Below, piece after piece: positions 6,421 to 27,900 of a stretch of 27,900 bases of DNA. The notes under the pieces are model-generated. The model saw nothing but the letters and a program-made list of their open reading frames with translations, was not told the DNA's origin and did not search any database. The position numbers and the translations under genes were made by a program. Origin of the DNA: Armatimonadota bacterium (GTDB lineage Bacteria; Armatimonadota; UBA5829; DTLH01); the NCBI GenBank assembly GCA_039680575.1, contig JBDKSP010000083.1, positions 1 to 27,900 of the forward strand. Direction: 5' to 3'. Every line of letters starts with the position of its first letter. The stretch's first letter is position 1.

Positions 6421-6449
6421 AGGGCGAATGGTTTTAGGCCATTCGCCCT
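6421..6449. terminator. Hairpin between the convergent HTH and PPIase genes
   Basis: agggcgaatgg / ccattcgccct perfect 11-bp stem; a second small stem plus T-run lies at 6464-6484. Confidence 0.6.
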
Positions 6450-6482
6450 GTCTTGACATATCCAACCCGGGTGGGTTCTTTT

Positions 6483-7652: not shown

Positions 7653-7855
7653 AAGTTGCACTCCTTTCAAGCTTGAGGTAGTTAACAGGTAAATGTTACT
7701 ACAATATAAATCAACGGTCAATAATGTCAAATGTCAACAGTCTGCACGGATAGAAATATGGCGCCTCCTGGGGATAGCGATGGGTAATCTTGACTGCCTG
7801 CTAACCCTGATCTATAATTCCCCCGGCAGATATATGATATTGGAGGCATGAAGCT

Positions 7856-8818: not shown

Positions 8819-8864
8819 TTAGCTGATTGCTTTTCGCTGTTCCCTTTCCGGATCGGAGCTGCAG

Positions 8865-10859: not shown

Positions 10860-11178
10860 CGAGGGATGAAATCGAGCCTGCAGGTAAAATAATATATTAT
10901 TTATAGATGATATTAATACCAATATACGGCGGATAATATAGTGAAAAAAGCAACCTGGCTGGAGATTATCATCGACAACTCGAAATATAAATAGAATCCT
11001 TCATATATTTTCCATAATCACTCTAAAGTAATTTCCCTAATTTGGCGATGATAATGTCGTACGTACAAATCCACATTATTCACTCTTATAACGGATAATG
11101 TCTTCCTATCAAGCGCATATTTGTTCTTTGTCTACGGGAGCAGAGTCTTGGGATTGTCCAGAGGGATTTATTTTTAGT

Positions 11179-13158: not shown

Positions 13159-13367
13159 CATTAAAACTGCCGCAGTAGTTCACCTTCATATGTCACCCCG
13201 AATCAAGTTCAGAGTCCACTGGGTTCCTCTGCCAAAAACCTGGTATATAGCCTGGTATGTCCATTGTGGAATAATTTGTAAGAAATACCGGGAAGTGTTT
13301 TGTGTAGAGGGTATCATTATTAATAGCTTCTTTACTCGCTTCTCGCGAATAGCAGGAGGAATGTCAG

Positions 13368-13870
13368 GTGGATGAATACTGTTCGAAACCGGCACAAAGC
13401 GGCTTTTATCTGGTGATCATCGCAGTTCTGGCAGCATTCATGCTGCAGGGCTGCGGAGGTGGCGGAGGGGGAGGAACATCCACAACAGTCAGTACCGGCA
13501 TCTTGAGGGGTGTCATCTACGCATCCGACGGTGTCACTCCGGTAGCAGGAGCCACGGTCTATGTCCCGTCCGGTAGAGCATCGACACCGGAGCCGGCCAT
13601 TACATCGACTGTAACGGCTGAGGATGGATCGTTTACGCTTACGGGTGTTCCCCAGGAAATACGGTGGTCAAGGTCACAAAAGACTCGTGGTCGCAGAGCA
13701 TCAATGCCACTGCAATAGCGTCCGAGACCGTAGTCCTTCCAAAAGCGACTACCACGCTTCTGGATACAGCTCCAGCTTCACCTTTCGATAGCGGCTCGGA
13801 GGATTCGGGCGATTCGGACGATTCAGACGATTCAGATGAACTCGATGCACCTCCGTCTTCACCTTTTTAG
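13368..13870 (+). pseudogene. Lipoprotein with carboxypeptidase-regulatory-like domain, broken by a 1-nt frameshift near 13650-13653
   Basis: Lipobox LQGC followed by a poly-Gly run. ORF1 ...DGSFTLTGVP continues naturally as GNTVVKVTK... in the frame of ORF 13664-13870. Confidence 0.7.
13802..13837 (+). repeat. Four degenerate 9-bp tandem repeats (gattc[ga]g[ga][ct]) encoding DS(G/D)
   Basis: gattcgggc gattcggac gattcagac gattcagat. Confidence 0.7.
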
Positions 13871-14103: not shown

Positions 14104-15675
14104 ATGAGGCTTGCAGCAATCTATACATCGCTGGTCTTTATCCTTTTTGCACAGGCTGTAGCACAAGATGAAACGGTTGCGCCGGTAACTGTCTACAGAA
14201 ACGTCGACCGGATCGAATTCACCGGTAATACAGTCATCTCAAGCGATGAATTGCTCGAGATCATCGGGATCAGACCCGGGCAACTCCTCACTAATGTTGA
14301 GCTCAGCAGGGGAATTCAGGCTATAACAAATGCGTATATGGATCGCGGCTATCTCGCTGTCGTGACTGGTGATATCGTTGCTCCGTTTCAGGAGACGGGG
14401 ATCCTTCGCGTCCCGATTACTGAAGTCCATGTGTCCGAGGTCAGGATAGAAGGGCTGCGGCGAACGAAAGAGTTTGCTATCCGACGGCTGCTGGAAGTGC
14501 AGCCGGGGGTGTTATACAATATTGCCGCCCTTCGCAGGGATGCTGAACGGCTGTTTGCGCTCAATGTATTCGAGTCAGTCAATGCGAGACTTGCCGAGGC
14601 AGATGAACCCGGCAGAGTTGTTGTTATATGGGAGCTTGTCGAACGGAAACGCACAGGGTTCATCACGCTCGGCGGGAGTTACAGTTCGAAAGATAACCTT
14701 GTGGGCAGCGTGACTGTCACTGAGTCAAATGTTCGAGGCCTGGCGGAACAAATCAGGCTGACGGTAAACGTCAATAGCCTGGATACCAGGTTTGGCGGAG
14801 AGCTTCTTTACTATACTCCGTGGGTCGCTCCAAAAACATCGATGACACTCAGGGCTTTCGACCTGGTTAGTTACAGGTTCGGGAGAGACCTTGTGAATGG
14901 GATGGATTCCGACAGGTACTTTGAGCGTGGAAAAGGCGGACAGGCGCTTTTTACCAGAACGCTGACCAATGTCCGCCGGCTTGTGGGTGGAATCCGATAC
15001 GAAGATATTAACGTATCCAACCTGCCGGTGCAGCTTTTTGTTGATAATACTCCATCCCAGGACGGGACAGTCGCTGCGATATCAGGCGAGTATGTTACCG
15101 ATCTTCGTGATTCGACCGTATATCCAACTAGCGGGATGCTGTGGCGGGCTATCATGGAGCCTGGCCGCGTTAACCTGGAAGATAACGGTGACAATTGGAT
15201 CACGAAAGGCTCTGTTGAGATGAGAAGGTTCTTTGCGCTCGACAGGATACCCGTATTGCCCGGCCAGACCGCAGCGCGAAGGCCGCGAGTCATTGCTGCG
15301 CGCCTTATGGCTGGATCATCCGTCGGTGACATTCCATTCTTCGAGCAATATTTCATTGGCGGGCTTGGAAGCCTGAGAGGTTACATCGAAGGCAGGTTCT
15401 GGGGAGATAACATGGTTCTTGCGACTGTCGAATACCGCAATCCATTCGGAAAATCGTTCACAGGAGTAGCATTTGTGGACGCCGGTGATGCCTGGGGAAG
15501 CGATTTCCAGTTCCAGCCAAATGTCGACACTGATTTCAGACAGCACAAGGGCTTTTCTCCTCGAGCTGGAGCTGGAATAGGTGTGCGTTATACCAGCGAT
15601 GTTGGCTCATTCGGTCTGGATTTTGCCTGGGGTGAGGAGTTCCGCACCCACATCACCCTTGGCGATACATTCTGA
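14104..15675 (+). CDS. Omp85 family (BamA/TamA-like) protein with POTRA domains
   Basis: POTRA-like IEFTGNTVIS and VRIEGLRRTK; GG..SLRGY motif; FVDAG; G.G.G.RY; C-terminal F. Confidence 0.9.
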   Translation: MRLAAIYTSLVFILFAQAVAQDETVAPVTVYRNVDRIEFTGNTVISSDELLEIIGIRPGQLLTNVELSRGIQAITNAYMDRGYLAVVTGDIVAPFQETGILRVPITEVHVSEVRIEGLRRTKEFAIRRLLEVQPGVLYNIAALRRDAERLFALNVFESVNARLAEADEPGRVVVIWELVERKRTGFITLGGSYSSKDNLVGSVTVTESNVRGLAEQIRLTVNVNSLDTRFGGELLYYTPWVAPKTSMTLRAFDLVSYRFGRDLVNGMDSDRYFERGKGGQALFTRTLTNVRRLVGGIRYEDINVSNLPVQLFVDNTPSQDGTVAAISGEYVTDLRDSTVYPTSGMLWRAIMEPGRVNLEDNGDNWITKGSVEMRRFFALDRIPVLPGQTAARRPRVIAARLMAGSSVGDIPFFEQYFIGGLGSLRGYIEGRFWGDNMVLATVEYRNPFGKSFTGVAFVDAGDAWGSDFQFQPNVDTDFRQHKGFSPRAGAGIGVRYTSDVGSFGLDFAWGEEFRTHITLGDTF

Positions 15676-15679
15676 GAAA

Positions 15680-16774
15680 TCAGATTATCTCCAGATAGTC
15701 CTTGTCCGGCAGTTGCGGGAATGGCGCTGCAGGGAGCGTCTGATACCAGTAGGCAACAGACGAAATGTCGTCCTGAAGCGGCAGATACCGCCCGCCGCTT
15801 CGCCACCCAAGCGCCTGGATGGTTACCCTGAGGTCATGCTCGAACCGGACCGGGTCGGCTATATGCCAGCGGTACAGCCCGAACCTCGTTTGTGATCTGT
15901 ACAGCCCGTCCGGGCGGATGACCTGAGGCAATCCTGCGTAAGGGGTTGTAAACTCACGGTAGCCGCCGTTTTCCTTGCCCAGGTCGAAGTCGTAAGAACC
16001 GCAGAAATAGTCCTCAGTGCCTGTCCCGCAGATAGTGGGCCAGTCTACATCGCCGTCCATATAGAACTTGATCTCGCCTTCGCCCCACCAGCCGCAGTTA
16101 TTGACTCCCCATGCCATGTAAGTCCCGACGTATTGCCCCTGTCCTTTGACTCCATCCAGGATCGTATGGACATCTTTATACGGCAGAGGGTTGACTCTTC
16201 GGAACTGGGCATGAAAGTAGGCTGCATCCTCCGGCACATCGGTCAGGGTGTAGTCTATCTGGTAGAAGAGCACCATAGGCTCGTCGTCGATGTTAGTTAC
16301 TGTCATTTTGCAGGATTTTTTGAACGGCATCTCCCAATAGCTGTTGAGTCCGCTTCTGGGATTGACGCAGACGGCAAGAGATGACACCTGCGCGTATTCG
16401 CCCCAGCCACAGGCGAAAAAGTCACCAATCGGGCATTCCACGGAGGGTGTTTCGCTGCCGTCCCAGTAGATTCTCAATATGCAGAACCGCCAGTGTCCGC
16501 TGGGAGTCATCCATATGTGCTGGATCGCGCCGGAGCCTTCGATGTCGGCCAGCGTCAGGCATTCGCCAGGCTGGATATTGGCAGCGGGGGATATTTTCCA
16601 GCCTTGCCCAAGGTCGCGAGCACATTTCGCGTTGATTCCTTCCGTTGCCATCCCGGCTTTGCCTTTTTCTCCGGTCGGGTTCTCAGCGCTTATCGAACGG
16701 GTTTTAGCCGACGACAAACGACTGAGGTTTCCCATGTGTACTCCAAGGCCGTTGAAACCTGTCATGTGACGCAT
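15680..16774 (-). CDS. DUF2961 / glycoside hydrolase family 172 protein
   Basis: Motifs RSISAENPTGEKG, PSVECPIGDFF, WWGEGEIKFY, GTGTEDYF, YRWHIADP and DDISSVAYWYQ. Confidence 0.92.
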   Translation of the reverse strand: MRHMTGFNGLGVHMGNLSRLSSAKTRSISAENPTGEKGKAGMATEGINAKCARDLGQGWKISPAANIQPGECLTLADIEGSGAIQHIWMTPSGHWRFCILRIYWDGSETPSVECPIGDFFACGWGEYAQVSSLAVCVNPRSGLNSYWEMPFKKSCKMTVTNIDDEPMVLFYQIDYTLTDVPEDAAYFHAQFRRVNPLPYKDVHTILDGVKGQGQYVGTYMAWGVNNCGWWGEGEIKFYMDGDVDWPTICGTGTEDYFCGSYDFDLGKENGGYREFTTPYAGLPQVIRPDGLYRSQTRFGLYRWHIADPVRFEHDLRVTIQALGWRSGGRYLPLQDDISSVAYWYQTLPAAPFPQLPDKDYLEII

Positions 16775-17005
16775 GATTCCTTTGCGTATGTTATTGGGAT
16801 ATATTTATGGATGGGCGTAGATAGCGGCGGCAACCACTAACGCGGCAATAAAAGCACAGAAAATCCTTCTCATCTGATTTCCTCATACTGCAACATGCCG
16901 CTTGCCCTGCGGCATCAAATTATAGATTTTAATTTTCCATCATTAATTAGCTATTGCAAAACCCGTACCATTACCAGCTTTTTGGGGTATTTATTGCTGA
17001 GGTTT

Positions 17006-17034
17006 TTGGCTGCAGAACATACGTTCGCAGTAAT
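17006..17034 (+). promoter_or_regulatory. LexA/SOS-type operator upstream of the head-packaging module
   Basis: AGAAC-ATAC-GTTCG at 17014-17027 matches CGAACRNRYGTTCG at 13 of 14 positions. It is flanked by ttggct and agtaat with 17-bp spacing. Another TATAAT lies at 17086-17091. Confidence 0.7.
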
Positions 17035-17145
17035 GCCCTGCAAATATCATTGTTTTGACCCCATATTTTGGCTGAGTTGTTGTCTTATAATAGTGAACAA
17101 CAAAATGCTGGCTTGGCAGCTAGAGTCATGACAGGGGAGGGCGGG

Positions 17146-17508
17146 ATGCTATCGAAAAAGCAGCGAAAAGCAATCAAACTGATGTTCCAAAAGCCTGACG
17201 AAGAAGTGGCGGCTGAAGTCGGGGTATCGATAGAAACTATCGCCAGATGGCGGCGTTCCAAGGAGTTCCAAAAGGCGCTTATCGCGGAGGAACGGGTAAT
17301 CAGGGCGGCTGCCGCCAGGATAACATCGGATGCGTCGCTCGTCGCTGCGAAGAACCTGCACAGCCTTCTTTCAAAAAGCGCCGATGGCAAGCTGAGCCTC
17401 GATACGCTCAAGGCGAGCGGTGCCTTTGCTGAGCGGGAGGAAGAACCGGGAGAGACTCTTGAGGAGATCATAAGAGAGGTAGCGAAAGGCGATGAGAGCG
17501 GAGATTGA
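17146..17508 (+). CDS. Putative terminase small subunit (N-terminal HTH)
   Basis: LSKKQRKAI...EEVAAEVGVSIETIARWRRSKEF HTH; overlaps the terL start; GGAGG RBS before ATG 17146. Confidence 0.75.
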   Translation: MLSKKQRKAIKLMFQKPDEEVAAEVGVSIETIARWRRSKEFQKALIAEERVIRAAAARITSDASLVAAKNLHSLLSKSADGKLSLDTLKASGAFAEREEEPGETLEEIIREVAKGDESGD

Positions 17509-18943
17509 CGCGAAACAGAGGATCGCTCTTGCCAAAAGGCTTTTCGGATGGCGGCCTCACCCAACCCAGAGAATATGGCTTGCGGACGAAAGCCGGGTAA
17601 AGGTTGCGGCCTGCGGACGCAGATGGGGGAAGACAGAGGCTGCCGCAGTCGATGCCGCAACGTTCGCCATAGCGGCTCCGGGTTCAGTTCAAATGATCGT
17701 AAGTCCAACTTATGATCAAAGTCGCCTCATTTTTGACGCTGTCGAGCGGATGATATTCGACCAGCCGCTCACCAGACGTGAATCGAAAGCCACCAAAACG
17801 CCCTATCCGAGGCTCAGGATCGGAAGAAGCCGGATTATGGCCCGGACGGCGGATGAGGATGGCCGGAACCTTCGAGGGCACTCCGCCGACAGGGTGATAG
17901 TCGACGAGGCGGCTTATGTGAAAGACGCTGTGGTCGAGGAAGTGATCGGTCCGATGCTCGCCGACCGCGACGGACAGCTCGTGATGATCTCGACTCCTTT
18001 CGGGAAGAACCATTTTTATCGCGCGTTTGTGAACGGGGTTGCAGCAGGCGAGGGTTCTAGTAAGCTGCATTTGGATAATATGCAAATGGTTGCATCCGAA
18101 TGCAGCGGATCTGCACCTGATGGAACAGGCAGCGAAGCGAAAGGCCGTGAAGAGCGGGGGATGGATGGAGTTTCATCTCCCTGCTCCGGCCGATACTCTT
18201 CATACCGGTTCCCATCCTGGAAAAACCCTCACATCAGCCGCGAGTATATCGAATTTCAGAGAAGTGTCGTCACCCCAAGGCAGTTTGCAGTCGAATACGA
18301 AGCGGAATTCCTGGACGACCAGACCTCAGTATTTCCGTGGGAGACCATACAGTCCGCAGTAAACCTCGGAAAGATCGAAATTGCTTCTGAAGAGCCGTGG
18401 ATTGTCGCCGGGGTCGATTGGGCGAGGTATTCGGACTATACCGCAGTCGTGGCAATCGATGTAGGGGCGTCACCTTCGAGAGTTATTGCCATAGACCGCT
18501 TCAACCGGCTCAGTTGGGAGTCCCAAATCGAGCGGGTGGCGGCATTTCTGGAGCGGCATCGTGTGAACGCTGTGCTCACGGACCAGACTTCCGTTGGCGA
18601 TCCGCTTTTAGAACAGCTGAGGAAGCGTCTCTGGGAAAACGGCGCGGGGATGGCAGTAGACGGCTTCACATTTACCAATTCCGGCAAGCGGGAGATTATC
18701 GACAACCTGGTTATACGGCTCACGAACCATGAGCTTGCCATACCCGATGATGAACAGCTCATCCGTGAGCTGCAGTACTTCGAATATGAGCTGACGACAG
18801 CCGGAAACGTGCGGATGAACGCCAGGTCCGGCTACACGGACGATATTGTGGCGGCGCTCGCGCTTGCAGCCTGGAGAGGCAGGTCACATTCGGGACCGGC
18901 GAGGTTTTTGGCAAGCGGCGAAAGGAGAAATAATGCTTACTAA
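17492..18943 (+). CDS. Terminase large subunit
   Basis: Walker A CGRRWGKT, Walker B VIVDEAAY, ISTP coupling motif, RNase H-like GVDWAR..DYT and DDIV.ALALA. Confidence 0.95.
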   Translation: MRAEIDAKQRIALAKRLFGWRPHPTQRIWLADESRVKVAACGRRWGKTEAAAVDAATFAIAAPGSVQMIVSPTYDQSRLIFDAVERMIFDQPLTRRESKATKTPYPRLRIGRSRIMARTADEDGRNLRGHSADRVIVDEAAYVKDAVVEEVIGPMLADRDGQLVMISTPFGKNHFYRAFVNGVAAGEGSSKLHLDNMQMVASECSGSAPDGTGSEAKGREERGMDGVSSPCSGRYSSYRFPSWKNPHISREYIEFQRSVVTPRQFAVEYEAEFLDDQTSVFPWETIQSAVNLGKIEIASEEPWIVAGVDWARYSDYTAVVAIDVGASPSRVIAIDRFNRLSWESQIERVAAFLERHRVNAVLTDQTSVGDPLLEQLRKRLWENGAGMAVDGFTFTNSGKREIIDNLVIRLTNHELAIPDDEQLIRELQYFEYELTTAGNVRMNARSGYTDDIVAALALAAWRGRSHSGPARFLASGERRNNAY

Positions 18944-20114
18944 ACTTCGATCAATACTAAAGAGACCAAAAATGAAGGAAATGATGGTAGCCGACCGGCT
19001 GGCGGGGGCGCTCGGGCGTGTCGGAGCGCTGGCCCCGGACGATCTGGTCACGAGCCGCGGCTATGAGATCTACGATCGGATGCAGTCCGACAGCCAGGTC
19101 AGGGCTTGTCTCAATATCAAGAAACTCTCTATTCTGTCCCGCGGATGGCAGGTGAGACCTGCTTCCGACAGGCCGGAAGATATAAAGATCGCCGATTTTG
19201 TGCGGTTTTGCCTGTCCGATATGCGCGGGTCGATCATAGATGTGCTGTACAACGTGCTCGATGCCGTCGCCAAGGGGTTCTCTATCTCAGAGATTAACTA
19301 CAAACTCATCGAAAAGGGACCTTACAAGGGAATGATCGGGCTCGATTCGATCAAATCGAAAGACCCGTCGGGAATCAGCTTCGAATCGGACGAGTTTTTG
19401 AACCTGATTTCTCTCAGGCAGAACAGTTCGATAGACGTGGGACTTCCGCCGGAGAAGTTTTTGGTCTACACCTACATGCCGCGCTATGAATCGCCTTACG
19501 GGACATCGGACCTTAGGGCGGCATACAGGCACTGGTGGAGCAAGGATGTAATCCTCAGGTTTTACAATGTTTTTCTTGAGAAGTTCGGCTCGCCGACTGT
19601 GCTCGGGGCTTACACTAGAGGCACTCCGAAGAGTCAGCAGGACGATTTGCTCAAGGTCCTCGACAGAATCCAGCAGGAGACGGCGATTGTGCTTCCTGAG
19701 GACATAAAAGTCGAGCTTCTGGAGGCTCAAAGAAACGGTGAGTCCGGCTATCTGCAGGCGATAGAGTACCATGACAGGCAGATCGCCAAATCCATCCTCG
19801 GCCAGACGCTGACGACGGATGAGGGAATGCGTTTCGGTTCGTTTGCGCTGGCGAAAGTGCATCTTGACGTGCTTAGAATGGTGCTGGAAAAAGTGAAAAG
19901 GGACATAGAAGAGTCCGTAATGACCGAGCAGCTCATCCGCAGGCTGGTGGATTACAACTTCCAGACGGACTTTTACCCGGAATTCTCGCTTGGGACGCTC
20001 CGCGAGCGCGACCTCGATCTCTTGGCGGGTGTTGTGGCGAAACTTGTGTCCGGCGGAGTGGTCGCACCGGATGAAGCCTGGATCAGGGACTATCTGGAGA
20101 TACCGGCGGGATAG
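18933..20114 (+). CDS. Portal protein, DUF935 / Mu gp29-like
   Basis: YDRMQSDSQVRACL, DAVAKGFSISEI, PYGTSDLR, FLEKFGSP, IAKSILGQTLT and GSFALAKVH; AAGGAG RBS before ATG 18933. Confidence 0.92.
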   Translation: MLTKLRSILKRPKMKEMMVADRLAGALGRVGALAPDDLVTSRGYEIYDRMQSDSQVRACLNIKKLSILSRGWQVRPASDRPEDIKIADFVRFCLSDMRGSIIDVLYNVLDAVAKGFSISEINYKLIEKGPYKGMIGLDSIKSKDPSGISFESDEFLNLISLRQNSSIDVGLPPEKFLVYTYMPRYESPYGTSDLRAAYRHWWSKDVILRFYNVFLEKFGSPTVLGAYTRGTPKSQQDDLLKVLDRIQQETAIVLPEDIKVELLEAQRNGESGYLQAIEYHDRQIAKSILGQTLTTDEGMRFGSFALAKVHLDVLRMVLEKVKRDIEESVMTEQLIRRLVDYNFQTDFYPEFSLGTLRERDLDLLAGVVAKLVSGGVVAPDEAWIRDYLEIPAG

Positions 20115-20179
20115 GTTTTGAATCGCGAAATGCGCGAAGAAGCACGAAAGACGCAAAAATGGGATTGGTGGAGATTTTT

Positions 20180-20245
20180 TATGCTGCGGGAATGGCAGAT
20201 TTAGGATAATTGTGCAATATGCACAGAATCAATTCCCGCAGCATA
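20180..20245. repeat. Nested inverted repeat in the portal-protease spacer
   Basis: tatgctgcgggaat (20180-20193) / attcccgcagcata (20232-20245) enclosing tgtgca-ata-tgcaca (20211-20225). Confidence 0.8.
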
Positions 20246-20288
20246 GAATGAGGGGTTCTTCAATCCTTTTCAACGAGAGGAATATCCG

Positions 20289-21284
20289 ATGAACATACAC
20301 AAAAGAAACGATGCCGACCCCGGAGATGGGATACAAAAATACGGAAATGTCGAGTTTGCCGATCCGGTGAACAAAAAATATCCGATAGACACGCAGGAGC
20401 ATATCCGCTCGGCGTGGGCGAAGATACAACTGCCGCGAAATGGGGTGCTTTATAGCCAGGACGAGATCGAATCCATCAAAAACAGGATCGTCCAGGCAGC
20501 CAAAAAGTTCGGTGTTCAGCTTTCAGAAGATCCCATTGAGCGGGATGCGAAGCTCTTTACTGCCGGGGACTATCCCGACCGTGGAATCGAGATCACGAAA
20601 GACGATCTGGACAGGATGGTGGAGTCTCATCAGCCTGTTCCGATCAAGATCGAGCATATAGACAGCCCGCTTGAGTTCGGAATGGTGACGAAACTCTGGC
20701 GGGCGGGGAAAGACCTCTTCGGCAGGCTCGTATTTACCCCCGAAGCGTGGGCGCTGATACAGTCATCAGATGCGAAAAAGCTCTCGGCGGCTGTAAAACG
20801 CGATAAATCCGGCATTACGGAGGTGAGCATAGTCAAACATCCGAGAATTGCCGGCGCAGCAGTGTTCGGCGGTGATACGGTCGAATTTCAATCTGAGATA
20901 AACGGAGGAGAAGAGATGTCAGAGACGAAATCAGCAGAGTTTTCTAAGAGAATATCAGACCTTGAGCGGGAGTTGAAGGCGCGTGACGTGGATTCACAGA
21001 TAGACACGCTGAAACGGGCAGGGAAGCTTACGCCTGCATCGGAAGAGCTTGCGAGAGCTATCCTTTCGGCGGGTGACTCGCAGGTTGTGACATTTGCCGA
21101 TGGTGAAGAGAAGCCGCTTACGGAGACTTTTCGCAGGTTTCTCGAAGTTCAACCAAAGGTAATCGAGTTTTCGGAGCTTTTCGACGGAGCGAAAGAGCCG
21201 GTGGAGATGAGCGAGGCTGAGCGCGAGCTTTATTCGAAGCTGGGACTGGAGCCGGAGTCTGTGGCGAAGTATCGGGGAAGGTAG
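20289..21284 (+). CDS. Mu gpI-like prohead protease/scaffold with N-terminal DUF6582-like domain
   Basis: N-terminal KYPIDTQEHIRSAW...IKNRIVQAAKKFGV; protease-like LFTAGDYP...ITKDDLDRMV...PIKIEH...LS; C-terminal coiled coil with GKLTPA; position between portal and capsid. Confidence 0.8.
   Translation: MNIHKRNDADPGDGIQKYGNVEFADPVNKKYPIDTQEHIRSAWAKIQLPRNGVLYSQDEIESIKNRIVQAAKKFGVQLSEDPIERDAKLFTAGDYPDRGIEITKDDLDRMVESHQPVPIKIEHIDSPLEFGMVTKLWRAGKDLFGRLVFTPEAWALIQSSDAKKLSAAVKRDKSGITEVSIVKHPRIAGAAVFGGDTVEFQSEINGGEEMSETKSAEFSKRISDLERELKARDVDSQIDTLKRAGKLTPASEELARAILSAGDSQVVTFADGEEKPLTETFRRFLEVQPKVIEFSELFDGAKEPVEMSEAERELYSKLGLEPESVAKYRGR
20916..21284 (+). CDS. Putative nested in-frame scaffold protein (Mu gpZ-like)
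   Basis: GGAGG at 20904-20908 ahead of in-frame ATG 20916 (MSETKSAEF); charged helical product of 122 aa. Confidence 0.6.
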   Translation: MSETKSAEFSKRISDLERELKARDVDSQIDTLKRAGKLTPASEELARAILSAGDSQVVTFADGEEKPLTETFRRFLEVQPKVIEFSELFDGAKEPVEMSEAERELYSKLGLEPESVAKYRGR

Positions 21285-21323
21285 CGCTTGGGAGGATTTA
21301 AGGGTAAGGCTCGTGGAAACACG

Positions 21324-21353
21324 TGTTTCGGGACGAACTGCGGTCCCGAAACA
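21324..21353. terminator. Hairpin after the protease gene
   Basis: tgtttcgggac / gtcccgaaaca perfect 11-bp stem. Confidence 0.6.
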
Positions 21354-21375
21354 TAAGAAAATTACCGGGGGAGAT

Positions 21376-21412
21376 AAAAAATGGGGAGTGGATAGCTAGC
21401 TATCGCACTCCC
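21376..21412 (-). terminator. Probable intrinsic terminator of the PocR-GGDEF gene
   Basis: gggagtg-gatagc-ta-gctatc-g-cactccc stem preceded on the + strand by aaaaaa (a T-run on the - strand). Confidence 0.6.
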
Positions 21413-21445
21413 AGAGAGGCAGTGTAACAAAAACTTTATCTTGAG

Positions 21446-22492
21446 CTATGCTGCTTTGGGTTGATCTATCGCCTGCGTTGATTCGCGGGATCTGCACAGA
21501 TTGGCAAAAGCTGCTTTGAACAGCGTATCGGGATCATCCGCAGCACAAGCCGGGTATGTAGCAAGCCCAGTATGCGCGGAAACCGGGATTTTCCGGCCGC
21601 GGGATACGATATCGCATGCGGCTATCCTTTTATCCAGCCGCCAGGCAACTATCTCGGCTCCGGCCTGATCGGCGCATCTCAGCATTACGAGGAATGAATC
21701 ACCTGCGTATCTTGCGACGAGGTCCGAGCTTCTGATCTCTTTCAGGATGATTTTCCCGACTGACTGAAGCACTCTGTCTCCGGTCACGTGCCCGTGGACG
21801 CTGTTGATCTCTTTGAATCCGTCCAGGTCGACCAAGAGCAGCGATATTGGGTAGTCATGCGTTTTGGCGGTCTCAAGCTCGCGCGAAAGGCATTCCCAGA
21901 AATATGCTCTATTGGCAAGCCCTGTCAGCGGATCGACTATCGTGTGAAGCATGTTCCCGCGTGAGGCGGTGGCAAGCTCGGAAACCATCGACTGAAGCGC
22001 GTTGAGCCCGGGCCAGACCTTGGTCTTCCAATCCGGCGCGGCGACAGGAATATTCGATGCGTATTTCACTGCCTTAGGAGCAGGTAATCCCGAATCAAGA
22101 GCGACAGCGAGCGCGGTGGGAGCGCCCGGTTCGGTTGTGACCAGTGATGTAACGACATAACCTACAGTCTCATCTCCTGCCTTTATCGGCAGCGCGATAT
22201 CTGTGAGGTCCATCGAACAGGTAAACTCGGCATGGGCGCTGCCCTCTGCTTCGTGTCTGCCGCAGTTTTTGCATGGTTTCTTGGCTTTTCCCTGCTTGGT
22301 GAACTGCCAGCAGAATGTCTCCAATTTTTCGGACATGGTCACAAGCCTGCCGTTCGAGGAGACAAAAAGTATCGGGATGCCGAGCGCTTCCGAGAAAGTG
22401 TCCTGCACCTGCTGGAGCGTCGTTTCCGAAACCAACTCCGTAAGATCGTCGAGGACTATATCATCCGTACTTTTTGCTATGTACCGTTTCAA
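21446..22492 (-). CDS. PocR sensor plus degenerate GGDEF (AGDSF) protein
   Basis: PocR pattern LQQVQDTFSEALGI...FC...C...FTC..DLTDIALPI...VGY; DPLTGLANR, DLDGFKEIN..HGH.TGD, RSSD...RYAGDSF; TTG start 22492 with GGAGGT RBS. Confidence 0.88.
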   Translation of the reverse strand: MKRYIAKSTDDIVLDDLTELVSETTLQQVQDTFSEALGIPILFVSSNGRLVTMSEKLETFCWQFTKQGKAKKPCKNCGRHEAEGSAHAEFTCSMDLTDIALPIKAGDETVGYVVTSLVTTEPGAPTALAVALDSGLPAPKAVKYASNIPVAAPDWKTKVWPGLNALQSMVSELATASRGNMLHTIVDPLTGLANRAYFWECLSRELETAKTHDYPISLLLVDLDGFKEINSVHGHVTGDRVLQSVGKIILKEIRSSDLVARYAGDSFLVMLRCADQAGAEIVAWRLDKRIAACDIVSRGRKIPVSAHTGLATYPACAADDPDTLFKAAFANLCRSRESTQAIDQPKAA

Positions 22493-22585
22493 ATACCCAC
22501 CTCCAGGCCTCAAATCTGAACCATATTTGATTATGGCAGGCTGTGCGAAATACTGGAGGGGCCAAAAGTAAGAAAGGAGCATACC

Positions 22586-23002
22586 ATGACTGCAACTACT
22601 ACTGCAAGAGAATCCAAACGAAAGGACGGGGAGCTTATCGCCTACAAGATGGCCGCCGTCAAAATCCCGAAAGGCGCGCTCGTCAATATCAACGCTGCCG
22701 GCTTCGCAACGAATGCATCGGACACAGCCGGAGAGACCTTCGTCGGAGTCGCCTATGAGACCGTCGACAATTCCGCCGGAGCAGCGGGCGACAAGGAGAT
22801 CAGAGTCGAGACTACCGGTACATTCGTTTTTGCCGACGGGGGCTCGAACGGCGCGCAGACAGATCTGGGAATCGAGTTCAAAATCGTCGACAACCAGACC
22901 GTGACCGATGCTGCCACCACGAACAACATCAAGGCCGGGGTGTGTGTCGAATCGGTCGATACTACAAACGTGCGTATCAGAATAGACCGCTACGCAAGCT
23001 AA
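22586..23002 (+). CDS. Capsid decoration/cement-like protein (DUF2190-like)
   Basis: IPKGALV...G.A..A......FVGVA.E.VDNS.GAAGD..IRV...G.F pattern typical of the gene next to Mu-like capsid genes; AAGGAG RBS. Confidence 0.7.
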   Translation: MTATTTARESKRKDGELIAYKMAAVKIPKGALVNINAAGFATNASDTAGETFVGVAYETVDNSAGAAGDKEIRVETTGTFVFADGGSNGAQTDLGIEFKIVDNQTVTDAATTNNIKAGVCVESVDTTNVRIRIDRYAS

Positions 23003-23017
23003 AGGAGGTGCTCGATA

Positions 23018-23473
23018 TTGCTCACAGCGTCAAATGAAACGACCAAACGCTCTCAGGAAGTGGCTGCAACCAGTGACGGTGCGCTGCGCGTCGATCCATC
23101 AGGCAGCCGTTACCAAGACCTGGGACTCGTTATCGATGACACTAACGTGGCTGCCGGGGCTTATATCTGGAGCAGCTACTACGAGAACACTCAGTGGGTC
23201 CGCAACCTGGTGCTTATGGTCAAGAGCGACAAACAGTATAGAGCTGTCGTTGTGGTGAAAGACACCGGCGGCATAGCTAATGGCGACTCTAATTACGATA
23301 GCCTTACCATTGCTGTAGCTGCTTCCGGCAGTAGCTATCGGCTACACAGACTGGGAGCAAGCACATCGATACCAGGAATCCTTGGTTATGCCGCGAAATT
23401 CGGTGTCAAGAACGAAGACTCATCGGCTGCCGCGACATCCGTTCAATTGCGCATACAACTTCTTGGGCTTTAG
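23018..23473 (+). CDS. Hypothetical beta-rich protein (possible head fibre/spike)
   Basis: AAGGAGGT RBS with TTG start, 151 aa, inside the head operon. Confidence 0.6.
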   Translation: MLTASNETTKRSQEVAATSDGALRVDPSGSRYQDLGLVIDDTNVAAGAYIWSSYYENTQWVRNLVLMVKSDKQYRAVVVVKDTGGIANGDSNYDSLTIAVAASGSSYRLHRLGASTSIPGILGYAAKFGVKNEDSSAAATSVQLRIQLLGL

Positions 23474-23481
23474 GAGGAAAA

Positions 23482-23724
23482 ATGAACAATCTTATAGATG
23501 CACTCACGAACGCGGGACTGGTCGAAGGCGGGATGATCGTGCTTGAAAGGTACGAAGACGGCACTATAAAGCAGACCGTAGATATTCAGACCTTTTCAGG
23601 TTTCTTTGCTGCGGCTATAGATTCCGCCGCACCGGGAAGCGAGTATGATGCGCTCGTTGCCGCAGACCAGGGTAAAGGCTATGCCCGGTTCTTCGACCAG
23701 TGGCACGCCGCAGGAATCATATAA
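23482..23724 (+). CDS. Small acidic hypothetical protein
   Basis: AGGAGG RBS, 80 aa, operonic. Confidence 0.6.
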   Translation: MNNLIDALTNAGLVEGGMIVLERYEDGTIKQTVDIQTFSGFFAAAIDSAAPGSEYDALVAADQGKGYARFFDQWHAAGII

Positions 23725-23755
23725 CGAATTCAACCAACAAAGGAGGTTATACTAA

Positions 23756-24670
23756 ATGGCTCTGGTAAAATCCGATATGCCCAGGCTGCTCGAGGCAGGG
23801 CTGAAAACAGTATTTTTCGAGGCTTATGATGCCGCATCGAACGACTCCGAGAAGATCATGACAGTCGTTCCGAGCGAGCAGGATACCGAGACTTACGCAT
23901 GGCTCGGCTCCGTGCCGAAAATGCGCGAATTCACAGACGAACGGCTTCCGGCAGGACTGCTCGAGCATGAGTACAAGATCAAAAACAAGACATGGGAGGC
24001 TTCCATTGCTGTCGACCGCGCCGCGATAGAAGACGATCTCTACGGACAGATCAAACTGAGGGTCCAGGGGCTCGCGCGTGAGACCAAGAGGCATATCGAC
24101 GAGATAGCATTCTCGCTTCTCACTTCCGGGTTCAGCGCCGTCTGCCATGACGGGCAGTATTTCTTCGACACGGACCATTCCGAGGGAATATCCGGCACAC
24201 AGTCGAACAAATGTACGGATGCGCTCTCGGCGACTGCGCTCCAGAACGCGATCACAGCGATGTCGAAGTTCAAGGACGACAGGGGCAAGCCGCTCGGTAT
24301 CTCGCCGGATGTGCTCGTAGTCCCGCCGGACCTGCAGTGGACCGCGCTGGAGTTGCTCAAATCGACTTATTATCCTGAAATAGTGGACCCGGCAGTCGGT
24401 TCCCAGAAACTTGCGGGAAATCCGCTCAAGAACCGGCTGGAACTGATCGTTTCGCCGTATCTTACGGATACCGACAACTGGTATCTGCTTGCCACGAACT
24501 GGGTGGTGAAGCCGATCATCTTCCAGTCCCGCGTGCCGGTGGAGTTCGCCGCGCTTGAGAGCGCGAGCGAGAACGGCTTTATGCGCGACCAGTACATCTA
24601 CGGCGTCCGCGCAAGGTACAACGCGGGCTTCGGCCTCTGGCAGACGGCTTATGGCAGCCTGGTAGCGTAG
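23756..24670 (+). CDS. Major capsid protein, Mu gpT-like
   Basis: ETYAWLGSVPKMREF, Y.IKNKTWE..I.V.R..IEDD..G, CHDGQYFFDTDH, LVVPPDL, YGVRARYNAGFGLWQ.AYGS; AAGGAGG RBS. Confidence 0.95.
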   Translation: MALVKSDMPRLLEAGLKTVFFEAYDAASNDSEKIMTVVPSEQDTETYAWLGSVPKMREFTDERLPAGLLEHEYKIKNKTWEASIAVDRAAIEDDLYGQIKLRVQGLARETKRHIDEIAFSLLTSGFSAVCHDGQYFFDTDHSEGISGTQSNKCTDALSATALQNAITAMSKFKDDRGKPLGISPDVLVVPPDLQWTALELLKSTYYPEIVDPAVGSQKLAGNPLKNRLELIVSPYLTDTDNWYLLATNWVVKPIIFQSRVPVEFAALESASENGFMRDQYIYGVRARYNAGFGLWQTAYGSLVA

Positions 24671-24682
24671 GGACAGTCGATG

Positions 24683-24729
24683 GAGATTCGTGCTTCGGGA
24701 TGAAAAGCGATCTCGAAGCATAGGATCTC
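24683..24729 (+). terminator. Imperfect hairpin immediately after the capsid gene
   Basis: gagat..gtgcttcgggat / atctcgaagcat..gatctc. Confidence 0.5.
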
Positions 24730-24754
24730 TCAATTCTCGAACCGGAGGTTTTAG

Positions 24755-25195
24755 ATGGCTATTTCTATTACAAATGCCGATGTAAAGCGAAAGTGCATGC
24801 TGCCTGCAGCGGATACTACTTACGACACCTCCATAGACGCGCTAATCGCTGAGATGCAGCCTGCAGTGGAGTTTACCATTGCGGATAACTACCTCGCCGA
24901 TACTGCCAATACCAGGCTCCAGTCGGCGCTCAAGCTCGGCATTCTTGAGGTCGTATCAGGCGAATTCCTGCAGCAGCTTGCCCGCGAGATAGGGAGTACC
25001 GAGGAGTTTTCAATCGGCGGGGTCACCATAGGCCAGATCAAGGAGCATGGCCCGGTGCTTGTTCAGCAGGGAGCAGCGCGGCTGGCACCGTTCCTGAAGA
25101 GTATGCAGCAGATGATGGCTGAATCGAGCATATCGAGTACCACGAAAGACACCGAGCCGGTATTTACGACTGACGAGACGGAGCAGGACCTATGA
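24755..25195 (+). CDS. Putative head-tail adaptor (neck 1)
   Basis: Position after the capsid gene; ITNADVK...D..IDALI helical pattern, EFSIGGVTI, L...A..LAPF. Confidence 0.65.
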   Translation: MAISITNADVKRKCMLPAADTTYDTSIDALIAEMQPAVEFTIADNYLADTANTRLQSALKLGILEVVSGEFLQQLAREIGSTEEFSIGGVTIGQIKEHGPVLVQQGAARLAPFLKSMQQMMAESSISSTTKDTEPVFTTDETEQDL

Positions 25196-25494
25196 GCGTG
25201 CTGTCGAGGATCAACAAAAAGATCGCAAAACACGGGGAAGACTTCCTGATAAACGGCGTTACTCAGGGCAGGGGGTTCTTCCAGGTATTGAGTTCAGGCA
25301 GCATGGGGATGTATTTCGATTCTTATGAGACTTCGGCTATCGTGCGCCCGGCGTTGATCCTTGTTACGACAGCTGATTCCCCGATAGCGGTTTCAGACAC
25401 CGTGACGCGAGATAGCCGGACTTACACAGTCCGAAAGATCGTGATTCAACAGCTCGGAGGGACGGCTGTGGTCAAAATAGCAGCGTTTTCATAA
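25192..25494 (+). CDS. Putative head-closure/stopper protein (gpFII-like)
   Basis: 100 aa, ATGA-coupled; beta-rich with I.V.DTVTRDSRTYTV..I motif. Confidence 0.6.
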   Translation: MSVLSRINKKIAKHGEDFLINGVTQGRGFFQVLSSGSMGMYFDSYETSAIVRPALILVTTADSPIAVSDTVTRDSRTYTVRKIVIQQLGGTAVVKIAAFS

Positions 25495-25514
25495 GAAATA
25501 AGGGAGGCTGGGCG

Positions 25515-25760
25515 ATGAGAGTGACTGCCAATGAGTCGGGTGAGGGAACTATCCTCGCCCGCCTTGCTGTTATCGAGAGCAAGATCGAGACTCTGATCGA
25601 AGAAGTCGCATCTGTCCGCGAGTTCATTCCGGCGAAGATGGTCGAACACGCCGAACGGATAACCGTGCAGGAGCGGAATATGCGGGCCATACAGTGGCTC
25701 GCGGGAGTTTTTATGGTCGCTATTATCGGGGCCTTTGTGGCCCACATTCTGGGGAGGTGA
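25515..25760 (+). CDS. Holin-like/XhlA-like membrane protein
   Basis: Coiled coil (RLAVIESKIETL...ERITVQE) plus a single C-terminal TM helix; GGAGG RBS. Confidence 0.6.
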   Translation: MRVTANESGEGTILARLAVIESKIETLIEEVASVREFIPAKMVEHAERITVQERNMRAIQWLAGVFMVAIIGAFVAHILGR

Positions 25761-25763
25761 AAT

Positions 25764-26075
25764 ATGAGCAACATATCATTCGGAGACTGGACAGCAGTTG
25801 CAATAGGCGTCATCGGTCTTGTTACAAGCTATGTGAGCAGCAAAAACAGGCTGCCGAAGTGGGCCAGGAAGTGGCTTTCTCGAATCGGTAGCGAAAACAT
25901 CGTAAAAGCCATAGAATATGCTGCCAAACTCTCTCTGTTGTCATCGGATGAACGGCGAAAAGAGGCGGTGGCCTATCTGATTGAACTTTCAGAGAAGGAA
26001 CTGGGCTTTGCTGTTCCGGAGAGTATCGCAAACCTGCTTGTGGAATTCATCTATCAGCAGTGGAAGAGGAAATAG
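25764..26075 (+). CDS. Putative holin (LL-H-like)
   Basis: N-terminal TM helix, then IVKAIEYA...ERRKEAVAYL...I.NLLVE..Y pattern. Confidence 0.6.
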   Translation: MSNISFGDWTAVAIGVIGLVTSYVSSKNRLPKWARKWLSRIGSENIVKAIEYAAKLSLLSSDERRKEAVAYLIELSEKELGFAVPESIANLLVEFIYQQWKRK

Positions 26076-26076
26076 G

Positions 26077-26553
26077 ATGGTTTCTCCGATAAAGGGCGGC
26101 ATCGCAAACCGGAGGTACAACAAAACGCTTCATGGCCGGAGCGTTTATCGAAAAATGGACGTACCCGGGCACAATGTAGTGCTCGGGTACAGCAGTCCTG
26201 GTGTCGGCGACGGGCTGGACATCTTTACCAATGCCGGTGAGCCAGTTTTCGCCATGCATGGCGGCAGGATCAACCGGATAGCCGACCGCAATGGCCGATT
26301 GGCCTGCATTTATATTGCCGGGAAGGACATGACGACCGTTTACGCCCACCTGCATATTCATGAGAAGATCAGGTTAGGGACAGTCGTCCGTGAAGGCGAG
26401 TGTATCGGCTGGGTGGGGCGAAAACTCAAGGACCCGCACCTGCATCTTGAAGCGTGGACTGGCGGAAAGTGTATCTCAGCGAAGACGCCGGCGCAGCTTG
26501 CGGTAAAGATAGGACAGATAATAGCTGCGAGTCTAAGTAACATCCTGTCTTAA
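26077..26553 (+). CDS. M23-family peptidase (putative endolysin)
   Basis: GLDIF..AGEPVFAMHGG, TVYAHL, V..G..IGWVG, PHLHLE; start re-assigned to ATG 26077. Confidence 0.8.
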   Translation: MVSPIKGGIANRRYNKTLHGRSVYRKMDVPGHNVVLGYSSPGVGDGLDIFTNAGEPVFAMHGGRINRIADRNGRLACIYIAGKDMTTVYAHLHIHEKIRLGTVVREGECIGWVGRKLKDPHLHLEAWTGGKCISAKTPAQLAVKIGQIIAASLSNILS

Positions 26554-26570
26554 TAGCAGGCCAGCTTGAC

Positions 26571-26622
26571 GTAGTGGCCGGTCTCCGTGCCGGCCATCGG
26601 CTCTGCAAGAGCCGGACTCTAC
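26571..26622. repeat. Inverted pair of GTAG-type REP-like palindromes
   Basis: GTAG-tggccgg-tctccgtg-ccggcca followed by cggctct-gca-agagccg-gact-CTAC. Confidence 0.6.
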
Positions 26623-26777
26623 CCATAGCTGCTACTAGAAACGGAGACTACTTAGAGTAATTGCCGGCTTTTTATGCGTCGTTTGAACAGCCGAGATGAT
26701 TTAAGCTAGAATAGGTGCTGAGGACGTTGGATATATTGCCTGGTGTAATAGAGGCAACCAATACCTCGGAGGTAAAG

Positions 26778-27731
26778 ATGCATTTAAAAAGGCTTGGTAT
26801 TGTTATCGCGCTGTTGGTTATTTCCGTGTCGTTGGCTGGAGCGCAGACGGAGCTTAAAGTCGGTGATGTCCCACCGGCGTTTTCGGAGAAAGCAGCGGTC
26901 AACGGAGGCCAGATTTCCCTGGAAAGTTATAGGGGTAAGGTTGTTCTGATCGACTTTTGGGCTACCTGGTGCGGTCCGTGCGTAAGAGAGATCCCTAATG
27001 TTAAGGCAATTTACGAGAAGTATAAAGACCAGGACTTCGCTGTAATCGGAATCAGCCTGGACAGGGAACAGAGCAAGTTGGAGGCATTCGTTAAGGATAA
27101 GGGCATAGCATGGCCGCAGATCTTCGACAGACAGGGCAAGATTGCCAATACCTATGGAATACGTTATATTCCGTCTACTTACCTGATTGACAGGGAAGGC
27201 AAGATTACGGCTGTCGAGTTGCGTGGGAATGATCTTGCGGTGGCAGTCGAGGATTTGCTCAAACGCCCACCAGTTGGTGTCGAGATCGGTAATACCGCTC
27301 CCGTTTTTAATGAGAAAGCCACTGATGGGAATCAGATCGATCTCGAAAGCTACAAGGGCAAGGTCGTAATCCTCAACTTTTGGGCGTCACTCAATAAGCC
27401 GTCCATAAAGGAAGCCAAGAATATTGCGGCAGCGTACAATAAATTCAAGGATAAAGGCGTTGCCGTTATCGGCATCGACCTCGATAAAGATCAAAAAACG
27501 CTGGATAAGTTCCTGAAGAAAAACAGAAATATATCCTGGCCGCAGATCTACGACCCCGGTATCCAGAACAACATCTCAACGAAATACAATCTCAAGAAAA
27601 CACCGTACACGTTCATTATCGGGAAGGACGGCAGGATTGTGTCCGTCAACCCCACGGGAGCAGACCTTAAGAAAGCCATCGAGCGGTCGCTTAACAGCGA
27701 GACCGATACTGCGGCTCCGAAAGCTGAGTAG
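26778..27731 (+). CDS. Secreted tandem TlpA/redoxin (thioredoxin-like) protein
   Basis: Signal peptide; domain 1 GKVVLIDFWATWCGPC; domain 2 GKVVILNFWASLNKPS; GGAGGT RBS before ATG 26778. Confidence 0.9.
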   Translation: MHLKRLGIVIALLVISVSLAGAQTELKVGDVPPAFSEKAAVNGGQISLESYRGKVVLIDFWATWCGPCVREIPNVKAIYEKYKDQDFAVIGISLDREQSKLEAFVKDKGIAWPQIFDRQGKIANTYGIRYIPSTYLIDREGKITAVELRGNDLAVAVEDLLKRPPVGVEIGNTAPVFNEKATDGNQIDLESYKGKVVILNFWASLNKPSIKEAKNIAAAYNKFKDKGVAVIGIDLDKDQKTLDKFLKKNRNISWPQIYDPGIQNNISTKYNLKKTPYTFIIGKDGRIVSVNPTGADLKKAIERSLNSETDTAAPKAE

Positions 27732-27839
27732 CAAAGCAAAGACAGATGGGTTTATGCGTTTAGTTGAATAATTACTAAGTAGCCCCCGTTGGTTTCAGTA
27801 GGCTTCCATAGGGAAAGAGTGATAGGAGGTACTATTCCG

Positions 27840-27900
27840 ATGGATGTCTTTCCTCTTGCTACTGAAGACCGACAGTATCTTGAATATGTATTTCGGACAA
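27840..27900 (+). CDS. Start of a CDS truncated by the window end
   Basis: GGAGGT RBS at 27825-27830, ATG 27840, open to the end (MDVFPLATEDRQYLEYVFRT). Confidence 0.4.
   Translation, partial: MDVFPLATEDRQYLEYVFRT

Follow-up and report, generated by a model that had tools for sequence, protein, structure and literature searches.

Phage structures that bacteria have domesticated are known in two forms, tailed carriers of DNA (gene transfer agents, GTAs) and headless tails (tailocins). Tailocins and PBSX are domesticated phage structural modules that are released by lysis of the producer and are often SOS-induced; tailocins keep the tail and lose the head, and PBSX has both. GTAs and viriforms include the RcGTA type of Alphaproteobacteria, BaGTA, VSH-1, Dd1 and VTA, and to our knowledge all described GTAs are tailed particles. 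Tail-less, DNA-filled capsids have so far been described only from mobile satellites, the cf-PICIs (phage-inducible chromosomal islands that form capsids); these elements, such as EcCIEDL933, are reported to release such capsids, which later join the tails of foreign phages (bioRxiv 10.1101/2025.02.11.637232). Here we analyze a stretch of DNA from an Armatimonadota bacterium (the window), which is the whole 27,900-b contig JBDKSP010000083.1 (C83) of the 2.97-Mb, 122-contig assembly GCA_039680575.1. On its plus strand, from 17.0 to 26.6 kb, it carries a module of about 9.5 kb with Mu-type head, packaging, closure and lysis genes and no linked tail gene.

With a probability of about 0.7, we read this module as what is left of a Mu-like virus that the host has domesticated and passes on vertically, a 'viriform' which would provide only head, packaging, closure and lysis functions and whose tail-less, DNA-filled capsids would be released by lysis. 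The evidence lies in its gene content, its conservation and vertical descent under purifying selection, the lack of linked tail genes and the dispersal of its genes in some lineages. An earlier note, made from the letters of the window, had proposed a domesticated packaging element, and this proposal is supported by the data presented here, in which neither patchy spread, nor closest kin among tailed prophages, nor relaxed selection was seen. The nearest homologues are equally tail-less, integrase-less and host-flanked loci, and tailed Mu-like phages reach only ~37% capsid identity.

The module shares with GTAs and viriforms a chromosomal set of structural, packaging and lysis genes that stem from a phage and are not accompanied by replication or integration functions, vertical inheritance across clades under purifying selection and, in some lineages, the distribution of genes over several loci. 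A link to host signaling may be a further likeness: RcGTA is reported to be affected by cyclic di-GMP (c-di-GMP) (PMC9143464), and in the module such a link is suggested by gene position only. It differs from GTAs in having no linked tail gene, with none detected in most carrier genomes; its head is of the Mu type (gpT, Mu portal) and not of the HK97/RcGTA type, and its host phylum is Armatimonadota. The cf-PICIs likewise encode a terminase, portal, capsid and connectors of their own and lack tail genes, but they are mobile, carry integrase, regulation and replication genes and occur as identical copies across species, whereas the module is vertically inherited, includes lysis genes and, in some families, is distributed over loci far apart. 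Compared with tailocins, the module is the reverse, with the head kept and no tail genes. No description of such a system was found in the literature searched, which covered GTA, tailless/domesticated and DUF6582 topics.

Families were assigned with Pfam and PHROGs for the 19 open reading frames (ORFs) at 14104-27731 of the window and with Pfam for the 16 ORFs at 194-13718. The module genes follow one another in the order terS, terL, portal, DUF6582/scaffold, an antisense GGDEF-PocR gene, cement-like gene, h151, h80, gpT capsid, h146, h100, tm81, tm103 and M23 peptidase; all are on the plus strand except the antisense gene. The earlier note had described an uninterrupted run of genes, which needs correction, since the gene at 21446-22582 lies between scaffold and cement and splits the module into what would be two sub-operons rather than a single unbroken run. 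Its remarks on ribosome-binding sites and translational coupling hold: Shine-Dalgarno sites are present upstream of most genes, and terS and terL overlap by 17 nt, terL and portal by 11 nt and h146 and h100 by 4 nt.

Matches in Pfam and PHROGs agree with the identities previously given to terS, terL, the Mu portal, the cement-like protein, the gpT capsid and the M23 peptidase. The small terminase gene terS (17068-17508), whose product has a helix-turn-helix, matches phrog_7344 (3.6e-10) and phrog_2538; its start is likely the ATG at 17146, after GGGGAGG, and homologues align from about residue 27. The product of terL (17492-18943) is predicted to combine a T4-type ATPase with an RNaseH-like nuclease (Terminase_6N/6C; phrog_2, 1.9e-43), and residues G42-T48, D138/E139, D309, D364, D370, D450 and D451, which we take to be the Walker A motif, the Walker B motif and the acidic residues of the nuclease, respectively, are invariant in 16 homologues. 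The Mu-type portal (18933-20114; PF06074, 6.8e-79; phrog_113, 3.1e-94) is followed by a 331-aa protein (20289-21284) with a DUF6582 N-terminal domain (PF20223, 4.2e-30) and a C-terminal domain like the scaffold of Mu I (PF10123, residues 216-327; phrog_976). This protein had been called a protease/scaffold, of which the scaffold part stands; neither Pfam nor PHROGs hidden Markov models (HMMs) detected a protease domain, and in pairwise BLAST against Mu I-like protease only the scaffold part aligned. Residues 70-207 gave a structural lead to P2 gpO and Mu I, and a protease domain in the middle of the protein is possible. In a related locus (L010, genome G126, 4741-6906), three additional genes are found between terL and portal, one of them an antisense gene for a ClpP-like SDH-type serine protease (PF01972, 7e-124), which might replace the undetected capsid protease in that lineage.

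Downstream of the antisense gene, a cement/decoration-like virion protein (22586-23002; phrog_1731, 2.8e-25; weak Phage_cement_2) and the major capsid protein of the Mu gpT family (23756-24670; PF10124, 1.5e-75; phrog_371, 5.8e-82) enclose two variable accessory genes of unassigned function with no Pfam or PHROGs match. Homologues of h151 (151 aa, 23018-23473) were found only in loci L001 and L013, with fragments in L073, and those of h80 (80 aa, 23482-23724) in L001, L013, L006 and L085. A canonical Mu-like myophage (L037, an IMG/VR contig) offers a useful comparison, as it also has, in the same order, terL, Mu portal, protease/scaffold I, a phrog_1731 protein preceding the capsid gene, gpT capsid and neck proteins. 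Its capsid is 37% identical. Unlike the module, it encodes a MuF-like minor head protein and continues with Neck1, sheath, tube, chaperone, tape measure and baseplate genes, whereas in the module the stopper is directly followed by the lysis genes.

The two genes after the capsid had been taken for neck genes; neither has a family match, but the assignment was borne out by their predicted folds. Profile searches of the PDB with alignments of both proteins gave nothing useful, so that folding was required. The model of h146 (24755-25195), built from an alignment of 20 homologues (predicted local distance difference test score, pLDDT, 79), has an SPP1 gp15-like fold, as expected for a head-tail adaptor: the best seven of the 50 VIA entries listed are all phage neck adaptors, with Z values of 8.5 for the P74-26 neck, 7.3 for phage 812, 7.1 for SPP1 gp15, 6.5 for phiCD508, 6.2 and 5.6 for two entries of T4 gp13 and 5.9 for the SaPI1 neck. 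Taken alone the Foldseek E-values for h146 are weak, and helical folds are a reason for caution. The model of h100 (25192-25494; 19 homologues, pLDDT 88.7) has the SPP1 gp16-like fold of a stopper or head-closure protein, matching with a Foldseek probability of 1.00 the stoppers of R4C and T1, one chain from the connector complex of SPP1 (7z4w_1) and the neck of lambda (8k37_M; TMq 0.65), at E-values of 6e-3 to 3e-2; the separate SPP1 gp16 entry (2kca) was matched with a probability of 0.87. An adaptor and a stopper of these predicted folds imply that heads could be sealed. In phages of the SPP1 type, the finished tail docks at this stopper-sealed stage.

The lysis functions would follow immediately. 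The 81-aa product of tm81 (25515-25760) has a clear C-terminal transmembrane helix (KD19 2.32, residues 62-80) and may be a holin/antiholin or a spanin-like protein, and that of tm103 (103 aa, 25764-26075), with a moderately hydrophobic N-terminus (KD19 1.46), may be holin-like; neither has a family match, and the earlier description of both as holin-like is only plausible. The gene tm81 is conserved in the loci of families f1, f4 and f5, and tm103 is conserved in f1 loci, where it immediately precedes the endolysin, and adjoins a different endolysin in L074. The M23 peptidase (26077-26553; PF01551, 1.3e-13; endolysin PHROGs) has no hydrophobic N-terminal segment and is likely the endolysin. 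The endolysin at the module end differs by lineage, being M23 here, VanY in L010 and phrog_2649, 435, 465 or 291 elsewhere, and this exchange of families indicates that lysis is conserved, rather than one particular gene.

As for tails and mobility, the earlier statement that the window lacks integrase, transposase and repressor genes is confirmed in that no such family was matched among the 19 ORFs at 14104-27731 (Pfam, PHROGs) or the 16 ORFs at 194-13718 (Pfam). Integrase, repressor and replication genes and alpA-type or pri-rep modules were absent from the window ORFs and from 24 related chromosomal loci; MuA/MuB, MuF and tail families were likewise absent from the 35 window ORFs, no dedicated genome-wide MuA search having been made. 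The window has no tRNA gene. In the 24 related loci (7 analyzed by Pfam, with 69 flank ORFs, and 17 by PHROGs, with 150 ORFs) ordinary host genes are found on both sides, and none of the flanks contains sheath, tube, tape-measure, baseplate or integrase genes. The only transposase match belongs to an insertion sequence (IS) that sits between the cement and capsid genes of L073 (9004-10026, genome G328), and in L080 there is one low-complexity 'tail protein' row with no aligned stretch.

On the right side of the module, a redoxin gene is the sole gene before the contig end, which is 170 b past it and consists of a multi-copy repeat, according to depth spikes, unitig breaks and k-mer counts; the window itself therefore cannot show what follows. 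The direct flanking by host genes that had been claimed is thus established on this side only via L001, a 124-kb contig of a same-genus relative on which genes for redoxin, a pyrimidine-nucleoside phosphorylase, a pentapeptide protein and ClpB come after the same module. Since L001 carries host genes after the module, a continuation with tails on another contig was rejected.

Searches for tails elsewhere covered sheath PF04984, tape measure PF10145, Neck1 (phrog_26) and Baseplate_J (PF04865), besides the Pfam and PHROGs scans of flanks. A tail locus at another site had been considered in the earlier note, and sheath, tube, tape-measure and baseplate genes are indeed present in the genome, but in a separate, complete myophage-type prophage on contig C77 (~17-56 kb, minus strand, loci L068/L069). 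Besides its own portal (phrog_2739) and capsid (phrog_2522), this prophage encodes a MuF-like protein of 1554 aa, a methylase-protease fusion of 1179 aa and a tail that comprises Neck1, sheath, tube and tape measure, a baseplate with PAAR and a fibre; these are the sole tail genes detected in the genome. It is unrelated to the module, and nothing links its tails to Mu-like heads. When 1102 ORFs of 67 related loci, including the tails of complete Mu-like myophages, were used in tblastn, no tail homologue was found in this genome outside C83. In the class, 43 genomes have a completeness of at least 90%, and of these the sheath family is present in 11 and the tape measure in 14. The module is carried by 40 of them, of which 25 match neither family, and four complete single-contig carriers match none of the four tail families.

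The same gene set is widespread in the phylum. The capsid gene was matched at 30 loci of species-representative genomes, 13 of them in Armatimonadota at 68-94% identity, and in these loci tblastn of the window proteins recovered the same genes; ORF calls in relatives were crude. It is present in 132 of 401 sampled Armatimonadota genomes and in 46 of 52 of the window's own class. By family, the frequency is high in f1 (5/5), f2 (24/28), f3 (2/2), f4 (10/11), f5 (5/6), f18 (17/18) and f29 (20/29) and lower in f13 (22/47), f16 (11/24) and f10 (6/32), and the gene was not found in f8 (0/27), f27 (0/20), f26 (0/15), f25 (0/13), f21 (0/12) or f22 (0/11). In most carriers the copy is single and intact, with a stop or a split in ~5 of the 132, and the tail-less gene set is kept across families down to ~45-55% capsid identity.

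Capsid divergence follows that of the host. Identities to the window for capsid and an RpoB segment are 94 and 93% in G198, 84 and 82% in G267, 80 and 77% in G298, 78 and 76% in G004 and 80 and 76% in G180; order-level genomes mostly show 66-73 and 66-69%, with G313 (56/67) and G303 (59/66) as outliers, and f5 shows 53-54 and 63-66%. The pattern that cf-PICI-type horizontal spread would produce, patchy and with near-identical copies in unrelated hosts, was not seen: capsid identity falls with that of RpoB, and the gene is carried by nearly all sampled genomes in some families and by none in others. Maximum-likelihood trees of both proteins for 21 genomes have 10 of 18 splits in common (mean 0.27 and maximum 3 in 2000 label shuffles), and their patristic distances are correlated (r = 0.80, Mantel 0/9999). 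The main conflicts are the position of G303 with f5 and that of f4 with f1. Taxonomic clades are not rejected in the approximately unbiased test (f2, p 0.39; f1+f2, p 0.24), for groups chosen after seeing the tree.

Selection was analyzed in one species pair, the window and L001, as descent was with one gene for each tree. The ratio dN/dS is 0.057-0.184 over 13 module genes (terL 0.057, portal 0.060, capsid 0.071, h151 0.127, M23 0.184) and 0.06-0.21 in three flanking host genes. Among the 13 genes for head, neck and lysis, 12 have dS values of 0.39-0.59 and h151 has 1.57; the host flanks have 0.34-0.50, and this equality of module and flanks implies that the module has been in place since the two species split. 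These data agree with what the earlier note had expected of a domesticated element, namely a conserved, mostly single-copy presence, a capsid tree largely congruent with the species tree (for which RpoB served as proxy) and dN/dS well below 1, and they place the module among gene sets inherited vertically across a clade under purifying selection.

Gene order is rearranged in L074 and f29, and in distant families terL lies among host genes, at 0.35 Mb from the capsid genes in G210, 0.57 Mb in G103, 1.0 Mb in G138, where the portal sits with it, and 2.26 Mb in G141; it was not found in G022. Some neighbours recur, with ClpB, transketolase and GH172 near the module in G198, G180 and G004 and a ParAB-SPOR-ECF sigma group beside it in G298 and G004. 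The scattering of terL, the rearrangements, the endolysin swaps and the host-type repeats in the spacers (miniature inverted-repeat transposable element, MITE, or repetitive extragenic palindromic, REP, sequences) are, as judged from these arrangements, signs of long residence.

Mobile relatives appear to exist in family f29. Contig C3 of G291 (24,958 b; locus L122, C3:1-20000) has an exact self-repeat with a period of 15,312 b, in keeping with a circular element of 15.3 kb or with a tandem copy, and carries capsid, portal, terL, cement and scaffold genes plus ~7 kb of other ORFs. Contig C2 of the same genome (L123, 16,096 b) is its relative, with 80-94% nucleotide identity, and the size of these apparently circular 15-16 kb elements matches the cf-PICI size class. 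Neither PHROGs nor Pfam assigned an integrase, replication or tail function to their non-structural half; a CsrA-like regulator match and three weak helix-turn-helix/excisionase-like matches were obtained. The capsids of both elements and of G130 C2 form a clade (99/95) that is sister to the chromosomal f29 copies (100/99), and those of Mu-like myophages fall outside these clades. Such elements suggest how the module may have originated, and they keep a satellite reading alive for some lineages.

The antisense gene encodes a PocR-GGDEF diguanylate cyclase of 378 aa (21446-22582, minus strand; GGDEF 1.1e-34, PocR 3.2e-18), and it is found antisense between scaffold and cement in all five assessable genomes of the window's family. 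Its counterparts in L001, L002, L005 and L013 are 43-93% identical. Between the window and L001 its dN/dS is 0.158 and its dS 0.226, about half that of its neighbours (0.39-0.59), and across genera the protein diverges faster than the capsid (43-50% vs 78-84% identity). Elsewhere, GGDEF genes are directly beside the module in f4 (L004) and f29 (L076, L077, L087), and in G210 the lone terL has a PAS-GGDEF-HD gene next to it. These positions suggest that the module may be linked to c-di-GMP.

A candidate operator was identified upstream of terS as a GAAC-N4-GTTC palindrome (17015-17026) that resembles a LexA or Cheo box and lies 53 nt before the TTG start of terS and ~120 nt before the likely ATG. 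The window contains two matches to this pattern, against 0.45 expected, and a box upstream of terS is perfect in 5 of 12 distinct loci (f1, f2, f5) and has one mismatch in three more. In the window's genome, a DUF6504-IMS (Y-family polymerase) cassette and a GyrI-like gene also have a box with an AT-rich spacer upstream, and another such box is ~310 nt before ligA. These observations point, weakly, to a LexA site. The second perfect box of the window (5854-5865, of the CGAAC..GTTCG type) is at the start of a sigma-70 region 4/helix-turn-helix gene (5829-6374). A scan of the window for promoters and terminators gave no excess over shuffles.

From these elements a possible course of events can be drawn. 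Upon induction, which would probably be triggered by DNA damage through a LexA-type operator in front of terS and modulated by the c-di-GMP enzyme of the module, the two sub-operons (terS to scaffold, and cement, capsid, adaptor, stopper, membrane proteins and M23) would be expressed. Procapsids of gpT would build on the Mu-type portal and the scaffold, TerS and TerL would fill them with DNA by a headful mechanism, and adaptor and stopper would close the portal. The membrane proteins and the M23 peptidase would then lyse the cell and free tail-less, DNA-filled capsids. The benefit would most likely be a GTA-type exchange of DNA within the population, the capsids either meeting free phage tails or decaying near competent cells. 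In this course of events, particle formation, DNA content, the inducing signal and the benefit are inferred. A more specific version, which we put forward as possible and quite tentatively, is that of a 'reverse tailocin' of Armatimonadota, an inherited machine wired to SOS and c-di-GMP that would pack host DNA into closed, tail-less capsids of the Mu type and lyse the cell; the capsids would become infectious only via captured free phage tails, and the circular f29 elements may represent ancestors of the machine.

Several observations weigh against the domesticated, head-only reading or parts of it. The capsid and RpoB trees disagree in 8 of 18 splits, and the neighbourhood of the module varies between genera of one family, which could mean mobility, as could the apparently circular elements of f29, which carry the same head genes and would be live mobile relatives. 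There are damaged copies, namely the lone terL of G141 (C1:94114-95379), with an internal TAG stop, and the module of L073, with its IS insertion. The lack of a protease match in the scaffold protein leaves capsid maturation unexplained, and several conserved ORFs in or near the modules have no assigned function. A short podovirus-type or otherwise unrecognised tail could possibly be encoded elsewhere. With regard to regulation, four of the 12 loci have no box upstream of terS, the box is not enriched genome-wide (42 found, 45 expected), and none is present upstream of three lexA-like genes (LexA_DNA_bind paralogues on C106, C43 and C117); in addition, only 3 nt separate the GGDEF start from the cement start, and no promoter for the second sub-operon is evident.

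One rival explanation is a full GTA or a defective phage that makes tailed particles, its tail genes being at another locus and too divergent or unusual, e.g. podovirus-like, to be detected with the four families and the flank scans used. Genes of the module are already scattered in distant families, with terL up to 2.26 Mb away, so that more loci are possible, and adaptor and stopper, the face at which a phage tail docks, are conserved under selection. This explanation is nevertheless unlikely, given that four complete carrier genomes have no tail-family match, that tblastn with 1102 ORFs found no tail in the window's genome outside C83, and that the sole tail cluster is the unrelated C77 prophage, of a kind that is patchy in the class (11/43). 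Slightly less probable still is a cf-PICI-like satellite or small integrated capsid-encoding element that spreads horizontally with helper tails and is not owned by the host. The gene set (terS, terL, portal, scaffold, capsid and connectors, without tail) is that of cf-PICIs, the 15.3-kb and 16-kb elements of G291 have capsids sister to chromosomal f29 copies, and the surroundings of the module vary between genera. None of the 24 chromosomal loci, however, has an integrase, replication or regulatory module beside it, and the near-universal single-copy presence within families, the identity that tracks RpoB, a dS equal to that of the flanks and the presence of lysis genes all argue for a resident gene set; a distance of up to 2.26 Mb between terL and the capsid genes cannot be reconciled with their being transferred as one unit.

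The module could also be owned by the host and serve a purpose other than transfer, such as an altruistic anti-phage or stress response, the sequestering or chopping of DNA, or a lysis that releases DNA (e.g. for biofilm matrix, under c-di-GMP control). The retention of lysis even where the endolysin type has been replaced, the recurrence of diguanylate cyclases inside or beside the module together with a candidate SOS operator, and the failure of the tail-family searches to reveal a delivery device would all be in line with such a role. We consider it improbable, because a whole packaging machine with adaptor and stopper, kept under strong purifying selection, exceeds what lysis or DNA release needs, and no defence-system context was seen in the flanks. 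Finally, chance loss of tail, integrase and early genes in a decaying prophage would leave phage-derived genes without replication or integration functions and would account for the few damaged copies (the stop in terL of G141, the IS in L073 and ~5 of 132 capsid genes split or with a stop), but in the window 13 genes are intact with dN/dS of 0.06-0.18, and the same tail-less set is maintained across families to ~45-55% capsid identity while diverging together with RpoB. We therefore reject decay, on distribution, cross-family conservation and dN/dS, as extremely improbable.

If the module is indeed a domesticated packaging system, it represents a head-only, lysis-competent machine that behaves as a host gene set, occurs in about one third of the genomes sampled from this little-studied phylum and is carried by nearly all members of several families; this behaviour and distribution imply that tail-less capsids have a function under selection. 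DNA exchange or programmed lysis of a new mode could come to light in this way and, should the 'reverse tailocin' version be true, it would be a GTA with outsourced delivery, through which genes could flow in uncultured phyla by a new route. It also indicates that calls of 'incomplete prophage' in metagenome-assembled genomes (MAGs) can conceal conserved host systems.

The spacers of the module contain repeats that were detected by k-mer counts and missed by a general repeat search. A multi-copy MITE-like repeat is located at the module end (26545-26650), where depth spikes and unitig breaks coincide with 14-mers of at least nine genome copies, and similar short hairpin repeats, also with at least nine copies, are found at 20113-20250, 21325-21355, 24685-24722 and 27775-27900. 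In three DNA runs, available as contigs only, breaks were caused by repeats and no joint with long flanks skipped the module; the joints that were listed have sides of 20-44 nt inside multi-copy repeats, and for this reason we do not interpret them as excision.

Two further observations were made. A gene for DprA, a protein of natural transformation, is present in the window on the minus strand (2006-3097), 14 kb upstream of the module, with no evidence of a link between them. Outside the phylum, the gpT capsid of a Zixibacteriota MAG (L021), in which protease, cement and capsid genes have no tail match downstream, is nearly identical to that of a Coatesbacteria MAG (L019), with branch lengths of ~0 and 0.07.

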